Shown here: piece after piece, positions 45,408-58,083 of the stretch | How the letters are laid out: each line of letters opens with the position of its first letter | Numbering within the stretch: the stretch's first letter is position 1 | Source: Podospora anserina | Taxonomy: Eukaryota | Reading direction: 5' to 3' | DNA length: 64,000 bases | Assembly (NCBI GenBank): GCA_017654855.1 | Contig: CM030337.1 | Coordinates: 2,542,001-2,606,000, forward strand | Made by a program: the position numbers and the translations under genes | The notes under the pieces: generated by a model | The model's input: only the letters and a program-made list of their open reading frames with translations | Told to the model about the DNA's origin: nothing | The model's database searches: none

Positions 45408-46415
45408 TGTTACACCCCAAGTATAATAACCCCGTGAAGGAACCACTGGGTGGTTCCCGAGGTGCTGGGACACCTCAGCCAATTATTGGGCCAGGGATGG
45501 AAAGACCTATAAAGTTCCTATGTAACTAATCAGGAGGTGTTTAGTTTAATCAGTGGCCAAGACTACTAAGCACACTGAGTATATCGATTATAAAAGATTG
45601 TGACGAACCCCTGTACAGAACCTCTAAAAGGGATACTGGTTAAAGGTAACTTCTAACAATTGGTTCGGTGCAGCTAAACAGTGCACAACAAGATGTCTCA
45701 ATATAAACACTAGCTACCGTGAATATAAGCTTGAATTGCATACTGCGGAACTATCTATCTACACTAGCCAGTTCCTCCGTATATATAGACCTTGGGGCCG
45801 TGAGGTGCTCGCCCTGCTATGGGCCCGATTACTCCTAGCACATTGCATCCTGCATTGTGCTCGTCGTGCTATACCTCTGATCACTCCTAGCACATTGCAT
45901 CTGCATTGTGCTCGTCGTGCTATGCCTCTGATCATCCCTAGCATCTTGCATCCTGCAGACTGCTCGTGAGCCTTAGCGCTATAGCACTTTTGCCTAGCCC
46001 TGATCGGCTTGTTCCCTGACTTCCTAAATGATTGGCTAGGGGCGACCTGCGCCCCACATGTGGCGCGACCTGCCGTTAGGTTAACTGTAACAAAGATTGC
46101 TTAGTCTGCTCAGCCGCCAAGACCACTGAGTATACTAAGTAAGGTATAAAAATATTTTAGAAATATATGTAGATAGCTGCACATAAATAGGAGGGAGCGC
46201 CTAGCGCTCTCCGTGTCGAGGAATCTGATTCCTTACGTAAGTAATTAAATTTATTTATCTATAATCTACTCTTAAGTAGTTTTTTATAGAACGACCTATT
46301 ATTAACAGTAAACCCCTTATCTAAGACGCTTGTCATAACCTTCGATTATCCTATTATATTTACCTCTAGCATACTACCTTGCAGTCTGTATCTACTCCCG
46401 GTGCAGGTTGTAATA
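45408..46415. mobile_element. Solo LTR (about 510 bp without its insert) inside the pogo element
   Basis: TGTTACA...TGTAATA ends with 5-bp TSD TCTAG at 45403-45407 and 46416-46420. Confidence 0.8.
45599..46092 (-). mobile_element. Little-mutated solo LTR of the same family as the 50011-57405 Gypsy element
   Basis: TGTGACG...TGTAACA, TSD AAGAT on both sides; its reverse complement matches both Gypsy LTRs. Confidence 0.92.
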
Positions 46416-47333: not shown

Positions 47334-48907
47334 ACGTGTATAATAAGCGAGCGCCGTAGATAAGCGAGCGCTGTACTTTTCGACGCGACCTAACCCTCTA
47401 CCTTTAACATTCCATTTTTAAACTAAAAACTATATTTTTTACCTCTAACGAAACTAAAGTAATTCTGGCCGCTAAAGCTATAAAAAACAATAAAAACCTA
47501 AGTAAACGAGCCGCAACGAAGATCTATAAAGTTAACGATAGAACTATTCGCCGTCGATTTACCGGTATACTTATACGACGTAATACTTTAATTAATTTAC
47601 GTAAACTTACGGATTTAAAAGAAAAAACAATTATTTAATATATAATTTAGCTATTTATATGCGTATTTTATCCCCGGCTTTCGTAGATAAAAAATATAGT
47701 TAATCGATTACTATACGAACGCGACGCGCCTCCTATTAGTATACGATAGGCTTATAATTTTGTTAAACGTTAGTTAGAACTTCGGATACGTTTTACGTAT
47801 AAATATAATTATTAAAGGGCTAAATATAAGGATTTAAAGGTTATTAGTAAGTAGTTTACCCTCGTACGGAATACTAAGGCTAAATATAGTATTATAAATA
47901 ATAATATTTATAACTTCGACGAGATTAGGTTCAAAATAAGCATTATCGTTACTATTATAATTATTATAATTTCTAATAGCTATAGTAAAGCTAAATAGGT
48001 TTAGCTTAGTAATCGTAAATGGGCTACGATTATTTAGGGTGTAAATACTTTAGGTTAGGCTATCTTACTATTTATTATTTTAATTAAGTAATATTACTTT
48101 ATTAATTAATATTAAAAGTATAGCCTTCCGGCTACCTAGCGTATTGCAATAACCGATAATAGCTAGACTACTAATAAAAAAGGCATGGATTAGATTCGGC
48201 ACTTCGATTACAGAAAAAAATATCTAAGGAGGTTTTACTAGAGCTAGCCTTATACCTTATAATCCAGAAAGGGTAATATCTAAGCTAGATATATATATTC
48301 GGACCCCAATACCCTTAGCCTTAAGCCTAACTACGGCACTACCTTGGGTCTCTCAAACGCCACACAACCCTCGAGAGGTTACCTCACAGTTAACGCTTAT
48401 TAAAACTCGAATTTCTAACCATTAAAATAGCTCTCCAACCTCAATACTAGCCGCTATAGACTAATTTATTAAGGGAGTAATAAGTATAATGCACGAGGTG
48501 GCTCTTCTCCGTGCAGAGGTCTCTTCGCTACGCAAGGCCAATAAGGAGCTTAGTAAAAAACGGAGAGCCAAAAAAACATATATGCGGCTTAGAGGATCAC
48601 TTACTATATAAGAGGCACAGGATCTACTAGATCAAAAGGCTGTGGGTGAGCAGGTAGCCCAGGAAATACGACAAAGTGGTGGTGGTGCAGGGGGGTCTCG
48701 TACGAAGATTCGGTGCTGTGGCGTGTGCGGTAAGCCTGGCCATAATGCACGTACATGCCAGGAGGCTGCAGAATCATCTGATTCATCTATTTCTAGTTCA
48801 GTTATCGTTATTTCTTTATGTTGTGGTTGTGTAATTGAGGATAGCTGTGGTAGGGTAGTAGAAAGTGCGGCGCTCGCTTGTCTGCGGCGCTCGCTTATCA
48901 TACACGT
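47334..48907 (+). mobile_element. Fot1/Pot2-family (pogo) transposon, internally deleted and RIP-mutated
   Basis: About 47-bp TIRs ACGTGTAT(A/G)ATAAGCGAGCGCCG.., TA TSD, NFDE motif, and C-terminal RCCGVCGKPGHNARTC knuckle. Confidence 0.92.
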
Positions 48908-51900
48908 TATAGATAAATAAGGTAATACAGATTCTTATAAATTATTTAATAATTTAGCTTAGCCAGCGAGTCGAGACGGTGCGGAAATTAACCCACAGCT
49001 TTATAACAGATTCTTAGGCATATAGTTAGACTGGAGACTAAATTGGAGAGCATATAAAGGGAAGGTAGTTAAAAAGCTAAGGACTTAAGACTACGCACTA
49101 TCCAGGATTGCAGCTAAAACCTAAGGCCCAGGCCTCATTAGAGCGCGAGAGGTATATACTAAGTGCATTAGAAGCGCTATAGCTTATGGAGCTGTCAACT
49201 ACTATATACCCACTCCAACTCGAAGTCAACTACGGGGTCTAGCGAAAAGGCTAGCGAAGGCTTAAATAAGGAACTTCAGGATAGTGGCCGGAGCATATAA
49301 GGCTACACTAATTAGAAACTTAGAAACCAAAACCTAGGTGCTATACTAAACCTATACCTTAATAAAAGACTAGTAGACTTTAAAGCCCGGCCATAAAACC
49401 CATACTTATATAACGGGCAAGGACTAGATATATTAAAGTACTTACTAGGGCAGCTCGTCCAAGAAGCGTGCAATAGGATATACCGACGCTTCTAAAGATA
49501 GAAACTAGGCTAAAGACCTATCTACCCATAGGAACCCATAATTATTAAGAGAACTATTATTACTATTAATTAGTAAGTTAGCTAGCACTAAAGCTAAAGC
49601 GAGAGCCAGAAAAAGACCCCGGTACCCACGATAAAGGTAGCACTATACTAAGTTTAGGAAAACCGTTAAAGAAAATAAATCGAAGGCCGACCTACTAAAA
49701 TAGCGGACGAAGGACCACTAAAAATACTTTTTATAAATAAAACCCTAAAAAAATATAAGGATTTAACTAAAACTTAAAACTTTTTATTAATCTAAGTTCG
49801 TACCGGAATAATAAATTTACGGGACTTTATAACGAACCTTTATATAAAACTTTTAAAAGGGATACAAATTAAAAGTAATTTTTAATAATTAATTTAATAT
49901 AATTAAATAATATATAATAAAATATTTTAATATAAATATAAAATATTATAAATATAATTATAAATTATATATTACGGAATTATTTATAAACTATTTAATT
50001 TCTCTATATATATTATAGTTAACCTAACGGCAGGTCGCGCTATATGTGGGGCGCAGGTCGCGCTATATGTGGGGCGCAGGTCGCCCCTAGCTAATCATTT
50101 AGGAAGTCAGGGAACAAGCCGATCAGGGCTAAACAAAAGTGCTATAGCGCTAAGGCTCACGAGCAGTTTGTAGGATATAAAATACTAAGGATAATTAGAG
50201 GTATAGCACGACGAGCATAATGCAGGATATAATATACTAGGAGTGATCGGGCCTATAGTAAGGCGAGTACCTTACGGCCCCAAAATCTATATATACGGAG
50301 GAACTGGCTAATATAGATAAATAGTTCCGTAATATATAATTTAAATTTATATTTACGGTAATTAAGTATTTATATTAAAATATTTTATTATATATTATTT
50401 AATTATACCGAATTAATTATTAGAAATTACTTTTAATTAATATCCCTTTTAAAAGTTCTATATAGGGGTTCGTTATACGTTATATACTTACTTTAACTCT
50501 ATTATAAATAAATTAAAAGCGTTTTTTTATTACTATAGTTTAACCCGAAAACGTTTAGATAGGAAGCGTTCCGCCTAGCTTAACTATCGAAGGACTTTCT
50601 ACGGCAAACGCTAGGTCCAGGGTCACTATAGCTTAATAGCTTATTAATTACGTTAAAAAGCTTAAAACTAAAGCCCAGTAAATTAAGGAGTAAATTCTTA
50701 CTCTCTTAGCGGTTAGGCCTACGTATATAACTAAATTCCCGGCACTAGAGCACTATAAAGGCGGAAAGATAGAGTTTAGAGGTTTCTTAATCTAGTTTAA
50801 AACCTATTTTCGTTATTATCCGGAATAGTTCGATATAAAAGAATCGAAAGTAATATACGTAATTACCCGGCTTAAAAATAAAGTTTTTATTTAATTCGAA
50901 TTTATTTTTAACGATTATTATAAGGTAATAGCGGAAAATTAAAAGGAGATTACTATTTAATATTTTTAGAATTACCGAATTTTTAAAATAAAATTTAGGA
51001 AAGTATTTAGGGAATATAATAAAGGTAAACGTATATAAAAAAGGCTCGCAAATTTATAATAAATATATTTAATAGCGGAATATATTATTTAATTTAAGAT
51101 CGATAGTTTATATAGCGAAATTAACGATAAGGGGTTAATATAGATTTTTTATAATAGCTTTAAAGAAAAGGTAAAAGATAAATTATATAAGGAAAAAAGG
51201 TTTAATACTATCGATAAATATATTATTATAATTATATAGATCGATAATAAATAATTTTAGCGTCGTACGGAAAAAAAAAGTTATAATAATCGGGGTTATT
51301 ACGGAAATTATTACTTTAATAATAAATATAAATAATAATATTTAACTATTAATTACTCCGGTACTATATATTTAGGACTTATAAATATCGACGCTATATA
51401 ATAATAAAGGCCGTAAAGTTAATGTTAAAATAAAAATAATTATAAATATTTTAATTATAGTAAAGTAAAATATTTTAAAAAGAATTACCGGGTATTTAAA
51501 TAATTTAAATAAAAGAAAGAGGTTACTATAATAATTATTATATTAAAAGAACCGAGGGTTATAAAGGTCGTAGCTATTGGGTATTAGTAAAGTAAAGTAA
51601 TAAATTTCGAAGAAAACTTTAATTAATACGCCGAATAAAAGGAAGTAGAGTTCTAGAGGCTACGGAAAGTAATAAAAAAGTTAAAGGCGGAGTATAAAGA
51701 AAGAAACTTTTAAATATTAGTATTTTAGGATCGATTAATATAAATTATTATAAAAATCGTTACGGAGGTCGTTAAGGATAATAATGCTATATAGTAAGAA
51801 GGATTTATTAAATAAATAATATTAAAAAAGTAATATAGTAAATATAAAATTATTATTTTATAAAAAATATTATTATTTATAAAACTTATATATAAAAGCC

Positions 51901-54900
51901 AGGAAAAATATTAAAAAAGTAAAAAAGTTATTAGTATCGGAATTACGAAATTATTAAGAAATATATTTATATTTATATAATATATACCCTATAAAGGAAA
52001 TATAATATAACTTTATTTTAAATATCCGGAATATCGGAAAGTACCTTAGTTTTAATATATTATATACGGATATATAGAATATTATTAAAGTAAATCGCTA
52101 TACGATTATTAACCGTTTATATTAAAGTATACGAAATATTATATTAAATACGTAAACGGTTAGGATATAAATAATAATATATATTTTTAAAAAAAAATAA
52201 TATTAAGTTAATACTTAAACTTAAATTATATATTATATTTATAAAAAAAAAAAAAATAATATTATTAAATAAAAATACTTAAATAAATAATTAAATAAAA
52301 AAACTATTATTAAATATATATATAAAAAATATTAGGTACGTAAAAGACGGAAGATAGAAGGAAGTTAGGCGGATATAGTTAAAAGACTTTATATTATTAA
52401 ATAATCTAGAATAAAAAAACGTTTTTAAACGATATAACCGTTTAAAAAATAATTTACGGCCTTTCGCGGGGGTTAGTAACCTTTAACGGACTACGAATAG
52501 TATTTTCGGAAATATTAATATAAAATAAAGGTATAAGATAATAACCCGGTACTCGTTAGCGAGGTTATTACCGCATAAAAAGGAAGTAAGAAAAATAAAT
52601 ATTTTTAAATTATAACGTATTAAAAGGATATCTAAGTAATAATATTAATAAATAGAAATATAAAAATAAACTTAATTTCGCTATAATTTATATATTAAAT
52701 TAAAATACTATAAAAAAAAAAAATTAAATCGTTATATAAAAACTATTTTTAACGTAAAAAGTTTATAAAAAAATATTATTTTTAAATATTATAATTAAAA
52801 GAAAAATAATTTTAATTATATTTAATATTATAAATATAGGATCCTCGAAGGATATAATTTTAGGGTAATTATAGTATAAAGATTATAATTTAAATATCGA
52901 TTAGAGGGATAGTAATTATTTATAATTAAAAAATTTTTAAAAGTATTTAATTAACGATAGGAGATTAGGCGTATATATAAAGTAAAGTGTAAGATAAATA
53001 CCCTCTACGGTATTACTATAAGGAACTTAAAAAGTAATAATATACTTTATCGATATAAGTAGTAAGATCGAAGAAATAAAGTTAATAACGTTAGTAGAGA
53101 TATCGGAGGTTAATAAATATATTTATTATAATAATATAAAAAAAGGCGAGAAAAAAGCGGTACCGATAAAATATTAAGGATATTTAGCCTTTACGGTTAA
53201 ATATTTAAAGGGACTTTTAGAGCGAAGACCGTAAGACTACGAAATTAAATTAAAAGAAGGAATTAAATTACAGTTATTTAAAGTTTACTATATTAACGAT
53301 AAGTAAAGTAAAGAGTTATAAAAATATTTAAATAAAAATTTAAAAAGAGGATATATTAGGAAGTCTATATCGCTAATAGGATACCCCGTATTTTTTATAC
53401 TAAAAAAAAATAACGGTTTATAATTATATATAAATTATCGTTAATTAAATAACGAGACGGTAAAAAATAATTATCCGTTACTATTAATATTTAAATTATA
53501 AAGTTAATTAATAGAGGTACGATATTTTATATATTTAAATATATTTATCGAGTACGCTTATATACGGATTAAAAAAGGAAATAAATAAAAAATAATATTT
53601 CGTATACCCTATAATTATTTTAAGTATCTCGTAATACTATTTAAATTAATTAATACGCCTATAACGTTTTAATCTTTTATTAATTATATAATCCAGAAAT
53701 ACCTCGATAAAATAATAATATATTATTTTAATAATATTTTTATTTACTTATATATTTTAAAGGAATATAAATAATATATACGAAAAATATTCGACGTACT
53801 ATACGGAGCCGGACTTTTAATTAATAAAAAAAAGAGTGAATTTTATATATAAAAAATAATATATTTAAAATATTTAATATCGTTAAATAAAGTTCGTATA
53901 GAATTTAAGAAAATTACGGTAATTAAAGACTAATTTATATTATAATTATAAATATATATTAAAGAATTTTTAAGGTTTATAAATTTTTATTAAATATTTA
54001 TTTATAAATATATAAGTATCGCGCGACTATTTAATTATTTAATTAAGAAGGATATAGAATTCCGGTAAAGGTAAAAAGAGGAGTAGGCCTTTTAAGAACT
54101 AAAAAAAATTATTTTAAAGGACCCGGTATTTAAATTATTAAATCCTAATTAACTATTTAAAGTCGAAGTAAATATATTAAATTATATAATTAATAAATAA
54201 TTAGGGTAGCGAAACGACGATAGTAAATTATACCCGGTAACTTTTTTTTCGAAAAAGCTTAAAGAGGTATATTAAAATTATTTAATTTACGATAAAGACT
54301 TATTTATTATTATTAAAGCGTTCGAGGAATAAAAACTATATTTTAATAATATTAAATATAAAATATAAATCTATATAGATTATAAAAATCTATAGTACTT
54401 TATTACTATAAAAGTTTTTAATATACGGTAAATATAATAATTAAAATTTTTTTCGGAATTTAATTTTTAAATTAATTATAAAAAAAGTTCGGAAAACGTT
54501 AGAGTAAATATATTTAACCGGCGGGCCGATTATTATAAAGATATATTTAAAGAATTACTATTATTACTTAAAAAAACGTTAAACGGTACTTTTAAATATT
54601 TATTATAATTATAAATAAAGTATTATATAATATATTATAAAAAAATTATTTTTAATAAATATTAAAGGAAATTAAGTAACGATATTACGGAGTAATATTA
54701 ATAGGAAGAGCTGGAACTATAAAATATTTAAAAGGATAATTAGGGAAAATTATAGTATAAGAATCGAGCGTACGTAATACTAAGTAATAGGACGATATTA
54801 ATAATAAAAATTTATAGATTGAAGTTCGGAAGATATATAAATATCGTAAAGACTATAAAAAAGATTAAATAATATTTTAATTAACTAAAGATTAAAAATA

Positions 54901-56120
54901 ACGTTAAAGAAACTATTTAATTATACTATACGTACGAAAAAATAAAAATTACGAGGCACAAACCTTATAAATTTTTAAAGCTATTATTAATAATAAAACG
55001 ATTATAGAGTTTAATTATAATAAACTTTATTATTAAATTATTAAAATTTAAAAATATAGTAACTAGCGTTAAATACGATAGTATATTAATGGTAATCGAT
55101 AAACTTATTAAATAAATATATTTTTTACTTTATAAAGAAACTTAATCGGTAAAATAATTAATAAATATAATATTATAATATATTATATTAATATATATAT
55201 AATTAAAAAAGTTTATTACGGACCGTAATATTAAATTTATATCGAAATTTTAAAGAGCGTTAATAATAAAGCTAAAAGTAATAAATAAAGTATTTTCGGT
55301 TTACTATTTTTAAACGGACGGTTAAACGGAACGGCTTAATTAAATTATAAAATAATATTTACGGAATTATATTAATTTCGAATAAAATAATTAAATTAAA
55401 TTATTATTTATAATATAATTAATATATAATATATTATTAATTAAAATAATTAAAGTTATATCGTTTTTCGTAAACTTTAAATATAAAATAAACCTATAGT
55501 AAGGACCTAACGTTAAAGTATTTAAGGTTAGGGTTAAAGTAAATAAATTATATATATTTTATAATAAATTTAAATAAAAACTAAAGTTTATAAGGGAAAA
55601 GATACGGAAATATTATAATACTAAAAAGCTCGAAGGACCTTACTTTAAAAAAAGAAATATAATATTCTTTTCTATATATAATTTACGTATTAAAAAACTT
55701 AATAAAAAACTAAACTATAGGAAAGTAAGCTTATTTAAAGTTAAAAGGAAGATCTTAAAAACGGTATTTAAATTAAAGTTACTTAATATAATATATTTAT
55801 AATTATATATTTTTTATATTTTACTTTTAAAACTTATATTACCGGTAAATAAGGTTAATATATAAGTAATAGCGGAAAACGAAAAAAAAAATTATAATAT
55901 AAAAAAAATATTAAATTTATAATTTAATAAAAATTAATTAAAATATTTAATTAATTAATTAAAATATCCGGTTATAAATAATTTATAAGAATTATAAATA
56001 TACTTTAATTACTTAAATAAATAAAAAGAATTTTATTAACGATATTTAGACCGACTTAAATTTAAATAAAAAAGACGAGTCTCTAAATTACTACTAAATA
56101 GTAATAATATAGAGATTAAA

Positions 56121-56191
56121 GAACTTTAATAGGAATCGAACCTACGCCTTTAACGTAGTAATCGATATACTATATACTATACTATAAAGTT
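56121..56191 (-). tRNA. RIP-mutated tRNA-like cloverleaf (Gly-GCC-like) within the Gypsy 3' region
   Basis: 71 nt: AACTTTA/TAAAGTT 7-bp acceptor stem, GTAGG-TTCGATT-CCTAT T-arm (B box), TAGTATAGT A-box-like; anticodon arm imperfect. Confidence 0.55.
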
Positions 56192-56276
56192 AAAAAATAT
56201 AAAAGGAATTAAATATAAATAGTATTACGCGCTTTAATTACTTTAAAAAGTAAAAAGCGTATTAGCGGCGGTATTT

Positions 56277-56850
56277 TAAAAGGTTAAGAAGGAAGGACCA
56301 GCCACGCCCGGGTCTAAAGAAAGGTTAGGCGGCTAGTCGAAGTTTAAGGAAGGATTTAAAAAGGAAAGATTAGAAAGAATAACGGAAACGTTTACCGCCG
56401 GCGAGCTATATAGGGTAGTAAGCCGCGCGGAAAACTCTTTTTTTTCCTCCTTAAAGAGCCGAGATTCGCGACGGAAGGTAGTAAGGGCTCGAACCTTAAG
56501 GGTACGTAATTATATTTCAAAATAAAAAAATTTATTTAAAGTAATTTACTTTTTGGTATTTAAACGTTTTTTTTTTTAATTAAAGGATAGACTATAAAGA
56601 TAATTAGAAAAGGGAAAAAAAGGTTAAAGAAGAAATTTACGATTTACGTTATAAATATTATAATAAGAACGACTCGAATTAATATATAAAAAATACCGGT
56701 TATATTAAAGGGAAGTTATATTAAAAGTTATTTTCTTTATAATAAATATATTCGGGTATAATAAAATTAAATTTCTCGAAAAAATATATTTAATTACGGC
56801 GACGGTCGATATTCGTATAAATCGATTTCCTTATACGATTAAATATAACG
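56277..56850 (-). pseudogene. RIP-mutated antisense ORF of the Gypsy element
   Basis: Minus frame DRRRN..., LRTLKVRALTTFRRESRLFKEEKKEFSARL...LNFD*PPNLSLDPGVAGPS; stops are at RIP-type codons. Confidence 0.5.
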
Positions 56851-58083
56851 GTTAGGATAATAGAGGAAAGGAACTTATAGTAGAGATACGGAAGAAAGGG
56901 GGATCGGTAATTATTTTAGGAATATAATTGCCGGAGTATCGATTTAAGAAAAAAAATATTATATTATAATTAACTTAACGGTAAGTCGCGCTATATATAG
57001 GGCGTAGGTCGCCCCTAACTAATTATTTAGGAAGTTAGGGAATAAACCGATTAGGGCTAGGCAAAAGTACTATAGCGCTAAGGCTCACGAGCAGTCTGTA
57101 GGATGCAAAATACTAGGGATAATTAGAGGTATAGCACGACGAGCATAATGTAGGATGTAATGTGCTAGGAGTGATCGGGCCTATAGTAGGGCGAGTACCT
57201 TACGGCCCTAAGGTCTATATATACGGAGGAACTAGCTAGTGTAAATAAATAGTTCCGTAGTATGTAATTTAAGTTTATATTTACGGTAGCTAAGTATTTA
57301 TATTGAGATATTTTATTATGCACTGTTTAGCTACACCGAACTAATTGTTAGAAGTTACCTTTAACTAGTATTCCTTTTAGAGGTTCTATATAGAGGTTCG
57401 TTATAGTATATATAAACCTAATATTAAACTTAAATTATTTTATTTTTCCCCGGATTATAACCGACTTTTAAAAATTATAAATAATTCCTAAAAATCACTT
57501 ATAATTCTTTTATATCCCGGATAATTTACCTCTTATTAATTTATCCTCCTTTCTCTTAATTAATTACGATACCTCCTTTTCCCTATTAATTATTCTTTAT
57601 AGGTATCTATATTATATTTATAATAAACTTTTTATTTAAATAATAAATCCTATACCTAACTACCTCCTACTATACTTACGGAGAAAGCTATAAAATAGTC
57701 GAGTACTTCGTTATATAATACTTAGTATTACCGAAGCTTAGATCCTAGCTAATAAATAATATCTACACGCACCAAGATTTTAGCCTTATACTATAAGGTA
57801 TAGGGTCCCGGAACCGAAGGCTATTAAGAAAGGTCTAGGTTAGCTAATAAATTCCGCCGCTTAATAGAATATAGTTTAGCGAGGAAACTGGAATTAGAAT
57901 AGGAGGATATATTTATAGGAGAGGAAGAGATAGAAGCGGCGGCTGGAGCAAAAGTCGAGGACATCTAGCCCTCAAGGCCTTATTGGGGCCTTTCCTTATT
58001 TTGTAACTATCTAGCTTTTTCAATAACTATTTCCTATTTGTTACCGATATATGTTTTTCACCTAGCCTCAGGGCACGGTTTTC

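Follow-up and report, generated by a model that had tools for sequence, protein, structure and literature searches.

A RIP-mutated tRNA-like unit between pol and a probable antisense gene of a decayed Ty3/Gypsy chromovirus in Podospora anserina

The 64-kb stretch of Podospora anserina DNA that was analyzed here as a whole (the window) has a G+C content of about 52%, except for an AT-rich block extending from about 44.9 to 57.9 kb. This block contains a Ty3/Gypsy chromovirus of 7.4 kb (50011 to 57405, plus strand), which has decayed almost solely by transitions. The element was classified by its LTR pair, the domain order RT, RNase H and integrase in pol, a C-terminal chromodomain and a polypurine tract. 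On the minus strand, a tRNA-like unit and an antisense open reading frame (ORF) were found downstream of pol (Table 1). A preliminary description of the locus had placed the tRNA-like sequence inside a Gypsy retrotransposon, between pol and the antisense ORF and far from the primer-binding site (PBS). The layout found here agrees with all three statements, the first on the evidence of the LTR pair and of pol.

Table 1. Features of the chromovirus in the window (positions in nucleotides of the window).
Feature	Position	Strand	Evidence and remarks
Left target-site duplication ATATA	50006–50010		By eye; weak, DNA very TA-rich
5′ LTR (468 nt)	50011–50478	+	Direct repeat, 90% identity over 300 nt; ends by eye, guided by the solo LTR and by the LTR termini of L070
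pol (RT, RNase H, integrase, chromodomain)	52548–56061	+	Full of RIP stops, no frameshift
tRNA-like unit (71 nt)	56121–56191	−	Acceptor stem of 7 bp; B box in the T arm; A box close to the consensus; anticodon loop of 6 nt; D loop not canonical
Antisense accessory ORF (about 217 codons), probable	56225–56878	−	RIP-degraded; phmmer and RIP-collapsed HMM; start by eye
Polypurine tract AAGAAAAAAAATAT	56947–56961	+	By eye; abuts the 3′ LTR
3′ LTR (444 nt)	56962–57405	+	Repeat match to the 5′ LTR and the solo LTR; ends by eye

The LTRs were defined by direct repeats at 50057 to 50356 and 56985 to 57284. The 5′ LTR begins with TATTATAG, compared to TGTTACAG in a solo LTR of the same family, and ends with TTCGTTATA. 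By eye, a tandem duplication of about 23 nt (GCAGGTCGCGCTATATGTGGGGC, present twice) was recognized between 50030 and 50080 of the 5′ LTR, whereas the 3′ LTR and the solo LTR each contain one copy of this segment. The partner of the left target-site duplication is GTATA at 57406 to 57410, one transition away from ATATA.

The conserved end of pol (..EFY.RY.DR.K) stops at 56061, and the next in-frame stops are located at 56067 to 56069 and 56127 to 56132. With stop codons read as X, the pol frame matched the Pfam family RT_RNaseH_2 with E = 2.7e-13. Using phmmer, the best match of pol was obtained with E = 5.4e-141 and many of the alignments ran in a single stretch, e.g., from query position 205 to 1165 against residues 233 to 1190 of the protein P0012. 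The nearest relative found, a metagenome locus designated L070, was aligned by tblastn over query positions 57 to 1171 in one piece (34% identity). Its pol contains the Pfam domains RVT_1, RNase H, rve (integrase), SH3_Tf2-1 and Chromo, and the chromodomain of the window pol is predicted from the alignment to L070, where Chromo was detected with E = 4.4e-9. A word-index search with pol gave distant matches only. Three proteins among the best full-length pol matches (P0012, P0013 and P0014) carry low-complexity tails of about 290 to 320 amino acids past the chromodomain. By eye, these tails are dissimilar to each other, so the region between pol and the LTR seems to be long and variable in the clade.

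The solo LTR is located at 45599 to 46092 in reverse orientation and, by eye, is flanked by the perfect 5-bp duplication AAGAT (45594 to 45598 and 46093 to 46097). It is far less RIP-mutated than the full copy, with a G+C content of 54% in the section from 45801 to 46100. In addition, a fragment from the 3′ region of the LTR was found in inverted orientation at 49828 to 49938, about 70 nt to the left of the 5′ LTR. This fragment is 92% complementary to 50367 to 50477, which suggests nesting or a rearrangement among copies of the same family. Since both a solo LTR and an LTR fragment are present in the window, the family must have been multicopy. For a second interior copy within the window, purine/pyrimidine-coded BLAST of 50478 to 56964 gave chance-level matches of 24 to 66 nt only. 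A less-mutated island inside the AT-rich block (48500 to 48920, plus strand, 49% G+C) harbors an open frame whose product includes a CCHC zinc-knuckle-like motif (..CGVCGKPGHNARTC..); this frame is probably gag of another element.

The antisense ORF ends with the stop codon TAA at 56227 to 56225, and its putative start codon is ATA at 56878 to 56876, derived from ATG. With the X-read minus frame as query, phmmer matched five members of a protein family that is also encoded by L070. The best match was P0188 (E = 0.0034 among 228 sequences, 10.5 bits), in which residues 51 to 204 were aligned to query positions 81 to 234. At the cysteine positions of the family, the ORF of the window has tyrosine, as predicted for TpG to TpA mutation, and a ..D.GV.GPSFL.. 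motif is located near its C-terminus. For a second search, the family HMM was collapsed for RIP by replacing C and H with Y, M with I, and W and Q with X. The best match of this model in the window was found in the frame of the antisense ORF, with 6.4 bits compared to 2.1 bits for the next match, although its E-value of 0.78 is not significant on its own. The first and the uncollapsed family HMMs missed the ORF and found nothing significant in the window, and the reverse phmmer search with the family members against the six-frame translation was not significant either. The similarity is weak but colinear, and the antisense ORF reported in the preliminary description is therefore probably real, as a counterpart of the L070 ORF family.

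In L070, the antisense ORF is located between pol and the 3′ LTR on the minus strand, from 9451 to 8903. It contains two RIP-type stops and continues in frame to about 8804 (HMM envelope 9451 to 8804). At E ≤ 1e-3, 54 relatives of this ORF were identified in Sordariomycetes and metagenomes, among them annotated hypothetical proteins of Staphylotrichum, Cordyceps, Fusarium, Beauveria, Metarhizium, Microdochium, Colletotrichum and Thermothelomyces. The members of the family are about 200 to 227 amino acids in length. Six cysteines are conserved with the pattern C-x2-C-x6-C-x9/10-C-x2-C-x7-C, a spacing that resembles that of Zn2Cys6 clusters in fungi. Behind the cysteines lies a coiled-coil-like block (KQKKLWFEKM.RA..RGID.VEELERVE). 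A Pfam search of the family gave no significant match; the best E-value for the L070 ORF was 0.13, and scattered weak matches were obtained for 22 members. No locus of the family was found in IMG/VR, and a short ORF at 56395 to 56520, used as a probe for paralogues, gave no candidates.

Next, the signature of RIP was analyzed across the element. Over most of 50301 to 56900, including 56001 to 56900, CpA and TpG together occur only 0 to 4 times per 300 nt (6 times in 50601 to 50900). The 71-nt unit contains 15 TpA and neither CpA nor TpG and is thus saturated like its surroundings. The B box of the unit is untouched because it contains no CpA or TpG and hence offers no target for RIP. Pairing in the acceptor stem was kept because TG in a helix faces CA and both are turned into TA. 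The preliminary description had pointed out the perfect acceptor stem and the B box. Neither of them requires selection or is evidence of constraint, since the chemistry of RIP itself spares both. Outside the 3′ LTR, about 400 nt (57406 to 57800) are almost equally depleted of CpA and TpG (index 0.13 to 0.27), which reflects either another repeat fragment or spreading of RIP to flanking DNA. Owing to this depletion, the RIP saturation of the spacer that holds the unit is a weaker argument in the interpretation given below.

The sequence of the unit on the minus strand is identical letter for letter to that given in the preliminary description, and its likeness to a tRNA was confirmed by two programs. 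ARAGORN called a single tRNA across the whole window, which is the unit. The Rfam model RF00005 matched the same segment with 37.1 bits (E = 3.5e-4 for the window), above its curated gathering score of 29. This alignment covers model positions 1 to 71 and passes over the anticodon arm of the unit as a local gap (14 vs. 15 positions). With default settings, ARAGORN found no tRNA in 300 dinucleotide-preserving shuffles of 50301 to 56900 (1.98 Mb), compared to one in the real sequence; the resemblance to a tRNA is therefore not due to chance. Statistically, the unit is a tRNA relative. A second candidate relic at 56485 to 56495 (minus strand), with an exact B box GGTTCGAGCCC surrounded by a 5-bp T-stem, was rejected as a chance match. 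It was called by ARAGORN solely at 80% thresholds, at which the shuffles yielded 719 calls per 1.98 Mb, and the B-box site has no fold and lies within the coding frame of the antisense ORF.

With its length of 71 nt, the unit has the exact size of a tRNA, as first described. It can be folded into a cloverleaf with all four stems and 21 pairs, of which 15 are Watson-Crick pairs, five are G-T pairs and one is a C-A mismatch. The acceptor stem is paired at all seven positions. Each of the six non-Watson-Crick pairs can be restored by reversing a C to T or G to A transition, in agreement with the earlier proposal that the stems are repairable in this way. ARAGORN itself proposed a fold that differs from that of the preliminary description, with a 3-bp D stem, a 10-nt variable loop and the anticodon TCG. 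The minimum-energy structure of the present-day RNA is not a cloverleaf (−15 kcal/mol, z = −1.74).

Pol III type 2 genes contain two internal promoter boxes with the consensus TRGCNNAGTGG for the A box and GGTTCGANNCC for the B box. In the unit, the B box GGTTCGATTCC at position 50 matches this consensus at 11 of 11 positions, so the T-arm with a B box of the preliminary description was found again. The A box at position 8 matches at 8 of 11 positions as it stands and at 10 of 11 with transitions reversed. Both internal boxes of a Pol III type 2 gene are thus present. The anticodon region and the D loop deviate from the canonical form. The anticodon arm comprises 16 nt with the 6-nt loop TACTAC, compared to an arm of 17 nt and a loop of 7 nt in decoding tRNAs. 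In the D loop (AGTATATA), no adjacent purines follow A14 and G15, so that G18 and G19, which are near-universal in decoding cytosolic tRNAs, cannot be recovered by transitions. TTTAAT comes directly after the 3′ end of the unit, and six T in a row are first found about 50 nt downstream, within a pol tail that is common to L070.

The unit occupies a non-coding gap of about 160 nt between the convergent pol gene and antisense ORF, 770 nt before the 3′ LTR. It begins 59 nt past the conserved end of pol on the opposite strand, and 33 nt after the stop codon of the antisense ORF on the same strand as this ORF. No obvious target-site duplication had been noted for the unit, and this was substantiated here: the best flanking repeat had a score of 16, which was reached by 26% of 800 random positions, or by 10% if the repeat was required to abut the unit. 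A link to the primer of the element was considered and rejected by eye. The PBS region (from 50479 onward) and the unit are alike only at the level of TA repeats, and the PBS of L070, which is not RIP-mutated, shows no likeness.

For comparison, related chromovirus loci were searched for tRNAs. ARAGORN detected none in 75 related metagenome loci (489 kb) and none in 20 chromovirus loci from IMG/VR (113 kb), and Rfam gave no match at the gathering threshold in the 20 closest loci. A purine/pyrimidine scan of the related loci for the unit had a best result of 15 mismatches in 71 positions, compared to 14 in the reversed control. A transition-tolerant pattern of the unit matched neither the metagenome contigs nor the viral contigs. 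Judging from these searches, the wider chromovirus clade does not share the unit. Of the 75 metagenome loci, 37 extend at least 300 nt past pol, and the antisense ORF was found in L070 only. There, pol runs to its stop at 8966 and overlaps the convergent antisense ORF by about 160 nt; no tRNA is present, and because of the overlap there is no room for a tRNA-like unit. By eye, the distance from the EFY motif of pol to the LTR is 906 nt in the window and 730 nt in L070. From the EFY motif to the end of the antisense ORF, the window has roughly 180 to 230 nt more than L070, and its two ORFs are separate. For homology between the spacer DNA and L070, a score of 36 was obtained, compared to a shuffle maximum of 46; this is a weak test, in which the LTR control failed as well (41 vs. 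49).

Taken together, the unit may best be described as dead, RIP-mutated and derived from a tRNA, either as a pseudogene or as the head of a Pol III element of tRNA origin. We give about an even chance to the reading that it is a dead Pol III-type passenger of the chromovirus. Before RIP, the unit would already have had the 6-nt anticodon loop and a D loop lacking G18 and G19, so that the A and B promoter boxes were possible but decoding was not. It would have been inserted, or captured in the course of reverse transcription, at the one site of the element where added DNA is cost-free, and would then have been RIP-mutated together with the rest of the element. At present it would have no function, and its good-looking parts would survive by chemistry. 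The lack of tRNAs in 95 related chromovirus loci and the lack of space for one in L070 are consistent with such a passenger, as far as can be judged from sequence comparison. The relatives concerned are distant, with the pol of L070 being just 34% identical after RIP, which would count against this reading. The search for a target-site duplication, a poly(A) tail or a SINE body at the unit was negative, which likewise counts against it.

Other observations on the surroundings of the unit speak against a passenger and for a different explanation, in which the unit is an integral module of its chromovirus family. In active copies, RNase P or RNase Z could then cleave the antisense mRNA at the unit and so determine where it ends, in the manner of mascRNA. 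Alternatively, the unit could serve as a Pol III promoter inside the element or as a TFIIIC-bound barrier between the convergent units. We regard this as the less likely explanation. A processing signal would fit the position of the unit, which shares its strand with the probable antisense ORF and follows the stop codon at a short distance; the conserved end of pol is reached 59 nt past the 3′ end of the unit. RNase P and RNase Z recognize the acceptor and T-arm half of a tRNA, and this half is the best-kept part of the unit. The fit of the A box (10 of 11, with transitions allowed) and of the B box (11 of 11) is in line with a promoter. In addition, both adjoining ORFs appear whole and not cut, unlike the outcome of an insertion into an overlap such as that in L070, and this fits an ordered layout at the level of the lineage. 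The family was once multicopy, as indicated by the solo LTR and the LTR fragment, and the spacer is RIP-saturated like the repeated interior. Saturation throughout the 880-nt spacer is easier to explain if the spacer itself was duplicated, but it may also have spread from neighboring repeats, given the roughly 400 saturated nucleotides outside the 3′ LTR. Against a module stands the result for the 95 related loci, with L070 managing without a tRNA while its ORFs overlap, and RIP chemistry alone accounts for the kept stems and B box. Furthermore, an internal unit bound by TFIIIC would lie in the way of the full-length genomic transcript. It seems rather doubtful, in particular, that a fungal chromovirus lineage keeps a tRNA-shaped module between its convergent genes, read from the same strand as the antisense Cys-rich gene, either as an RNase P/RNase Z site at which the mRNA ends with no need of a poly(A) signal within pol, or as a landing site for Pol III and TFIIIC.

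A former decoding tRNA gene, either of the host or carried by the element, that was ruined by RIP and a 1-nt deletion is an improbable source of the unit. Its full tRNA length, its repairable pairs and an Rfam score above the threshold would be expected of such a gene. The preliminary description had suggested that the sequence TTACTA in the anticodon loop could derive from TTGCCA of a glycine tRNA. By eye, the contexts of the transitions required (TpG to TpA and CpA to TpA) do fit tRNA-Gly(GCC), but the remaining molecule fits no canonical tRNA. With G18 and G19 irrecoverable and the arm 1 nt short, no isotype can be assigned to the unit. The deletion itself is hard to reconcile with pol, which is free of frameshifts over about 2.9 to 3.3 kb, so that a later loss of 1 nt in a 17-nt arm is unlikely. 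No clear T run adjoins the 3′ end, the run of six T about 50 nt away belonging to the pol tail. The TTT that follows the 3′ end cannot be derived from CCA by transitions, which excludes a retro-copied mature tRNA. Owing to the 6-nt loop, the D loop without recoverable G18 and G19 and the frameshift-free pol, we conclude that the unit was probably never a decoding tRNA, and that it was already tRNA-like and equipped with promoter boxes before RIP. This agrees with the doubt about a translational role that was raised earlier because of the 6-nt loop.

A chance look-alike, or a relic of primer-tRNA read-through from an over-long primer-binding site, is highly improbable, for although TA repeats abound in AT-rich RIP DNA and can pair with themselves, the shuffles gave no ARAGORN call and the Rfam match is significant, and the unit comes after the pol chromodomain and not after an LTR, with no trace of a CCA complement ahead of it on the plus strand.

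Several known systems resemble the unit in part. Like tRNA-derived SINEs (SINE2 type), a passenger of this kind would combine a tRNA-related head and A and B boxes with an inability to decode. In contrast to SINEs, the unit lacks a tRNA-unrelated body as well as an A-rich or LINE-like tail, and its flanks show no significant target-site duplication. Moreover, conserved pol sequence lies just 59 nt away, and the tail in between can still be aligned in part with L070. The mascRNA of MALAT1 represents a tRNA-like element for the 3′-end processing of a Pol II transcript, which is located downstream of the functional part and combines a good acceptor and T-arm half with a defective anticodon region. 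By analogy, the tRNA shape of the unit past a functional part, its good acceptor and T-arm half and its defective anticodon region may be compared to this type. The host of the unit, in contrast, is a retrotransposon gene and not a long non-coding RNA, and the unit is known here from its sequence.

Among LTR retroelements, tRNA-derived sequences with conserved A and B box regions, which are mostly unable to encode a functional tRNA, are described for Helenus (TRIMp3), including cases in fungi, in the available part of the report (Kojima, 2024; PMC10886601). According to the same part, the tRNA-like sequence of Helenus is located in the LTRs of short (311 to 1263 bp), non-autonomous elements and is thought to be their own Pol III promoter. 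The fungal cases, for which a link to Copia is described, come from Pucciniales and a small number of Agaricomycetes (PMC10886601). As far as this account extends, Helenus and the unit have in common their derivation from a tRNA, the A and B boxes and an LTR retroelement as carrier. The unit differs in being single, internal and antisense, and in residing in a 7.4-kb autonomous chromovirus with a full pol, the LTRs of which contain no tRNA-like sequence.

Antisense extra ORFs between pol and the 3′ LTR are described for the Retand/Tat lineages of plant Ty3/Gypsy elements in the accessible sections of PMC11963269. These lineages and the element in the window would therefore share an accessory ORF on the opposite strand in a long stretch between pol and the 3′ LTR, with the difference that the latter belongs to a fungal chromovirus lineage. 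No tRNA-like unit is mentioned for the antisense ORFs of Retand/Tat in the same sections (PMC11963269). In the literature available in part, no report of an internal tRNA-like unit in an autonomous fungal Gypsy element was found, which is not proof of absence, and the accessible portions of papers on Verticillium transposons contain no relevant mention of a tRNA.

In summary, the observation on which the preliminary description was based is confirmed, and its interpretation is partly supported. The unit is a modestly unusual arrangement of a known kind and, at present, just one dead relic. A tRNA-like unit that is internal to an autonomous element and antisense would be arranged differently from the LTR-borne sequences of miniature retrotransposons, which are presumed to drive Pol III transcription. 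Tentatively, if the reading as a kept module were true, it would be the first tRNA-like module with a function inside an LTR retrotransposon that is autonomous, in contrast to miniature elements of the Helenus type with their LTR promoters. If the unit proved to be conserved, this would point to a tRNA-based way to end or insulate an antisense gene within a retroelement. Well-kept-looking tRNA-like matches in AT-rich fungal repeats inflate counts of tRNA genes and should not be taken as a sign of selection. The conserved and unannotated antisense ORF family of this Sordariomycete chromovirus lineage may be a more useful lead than the unit itself.
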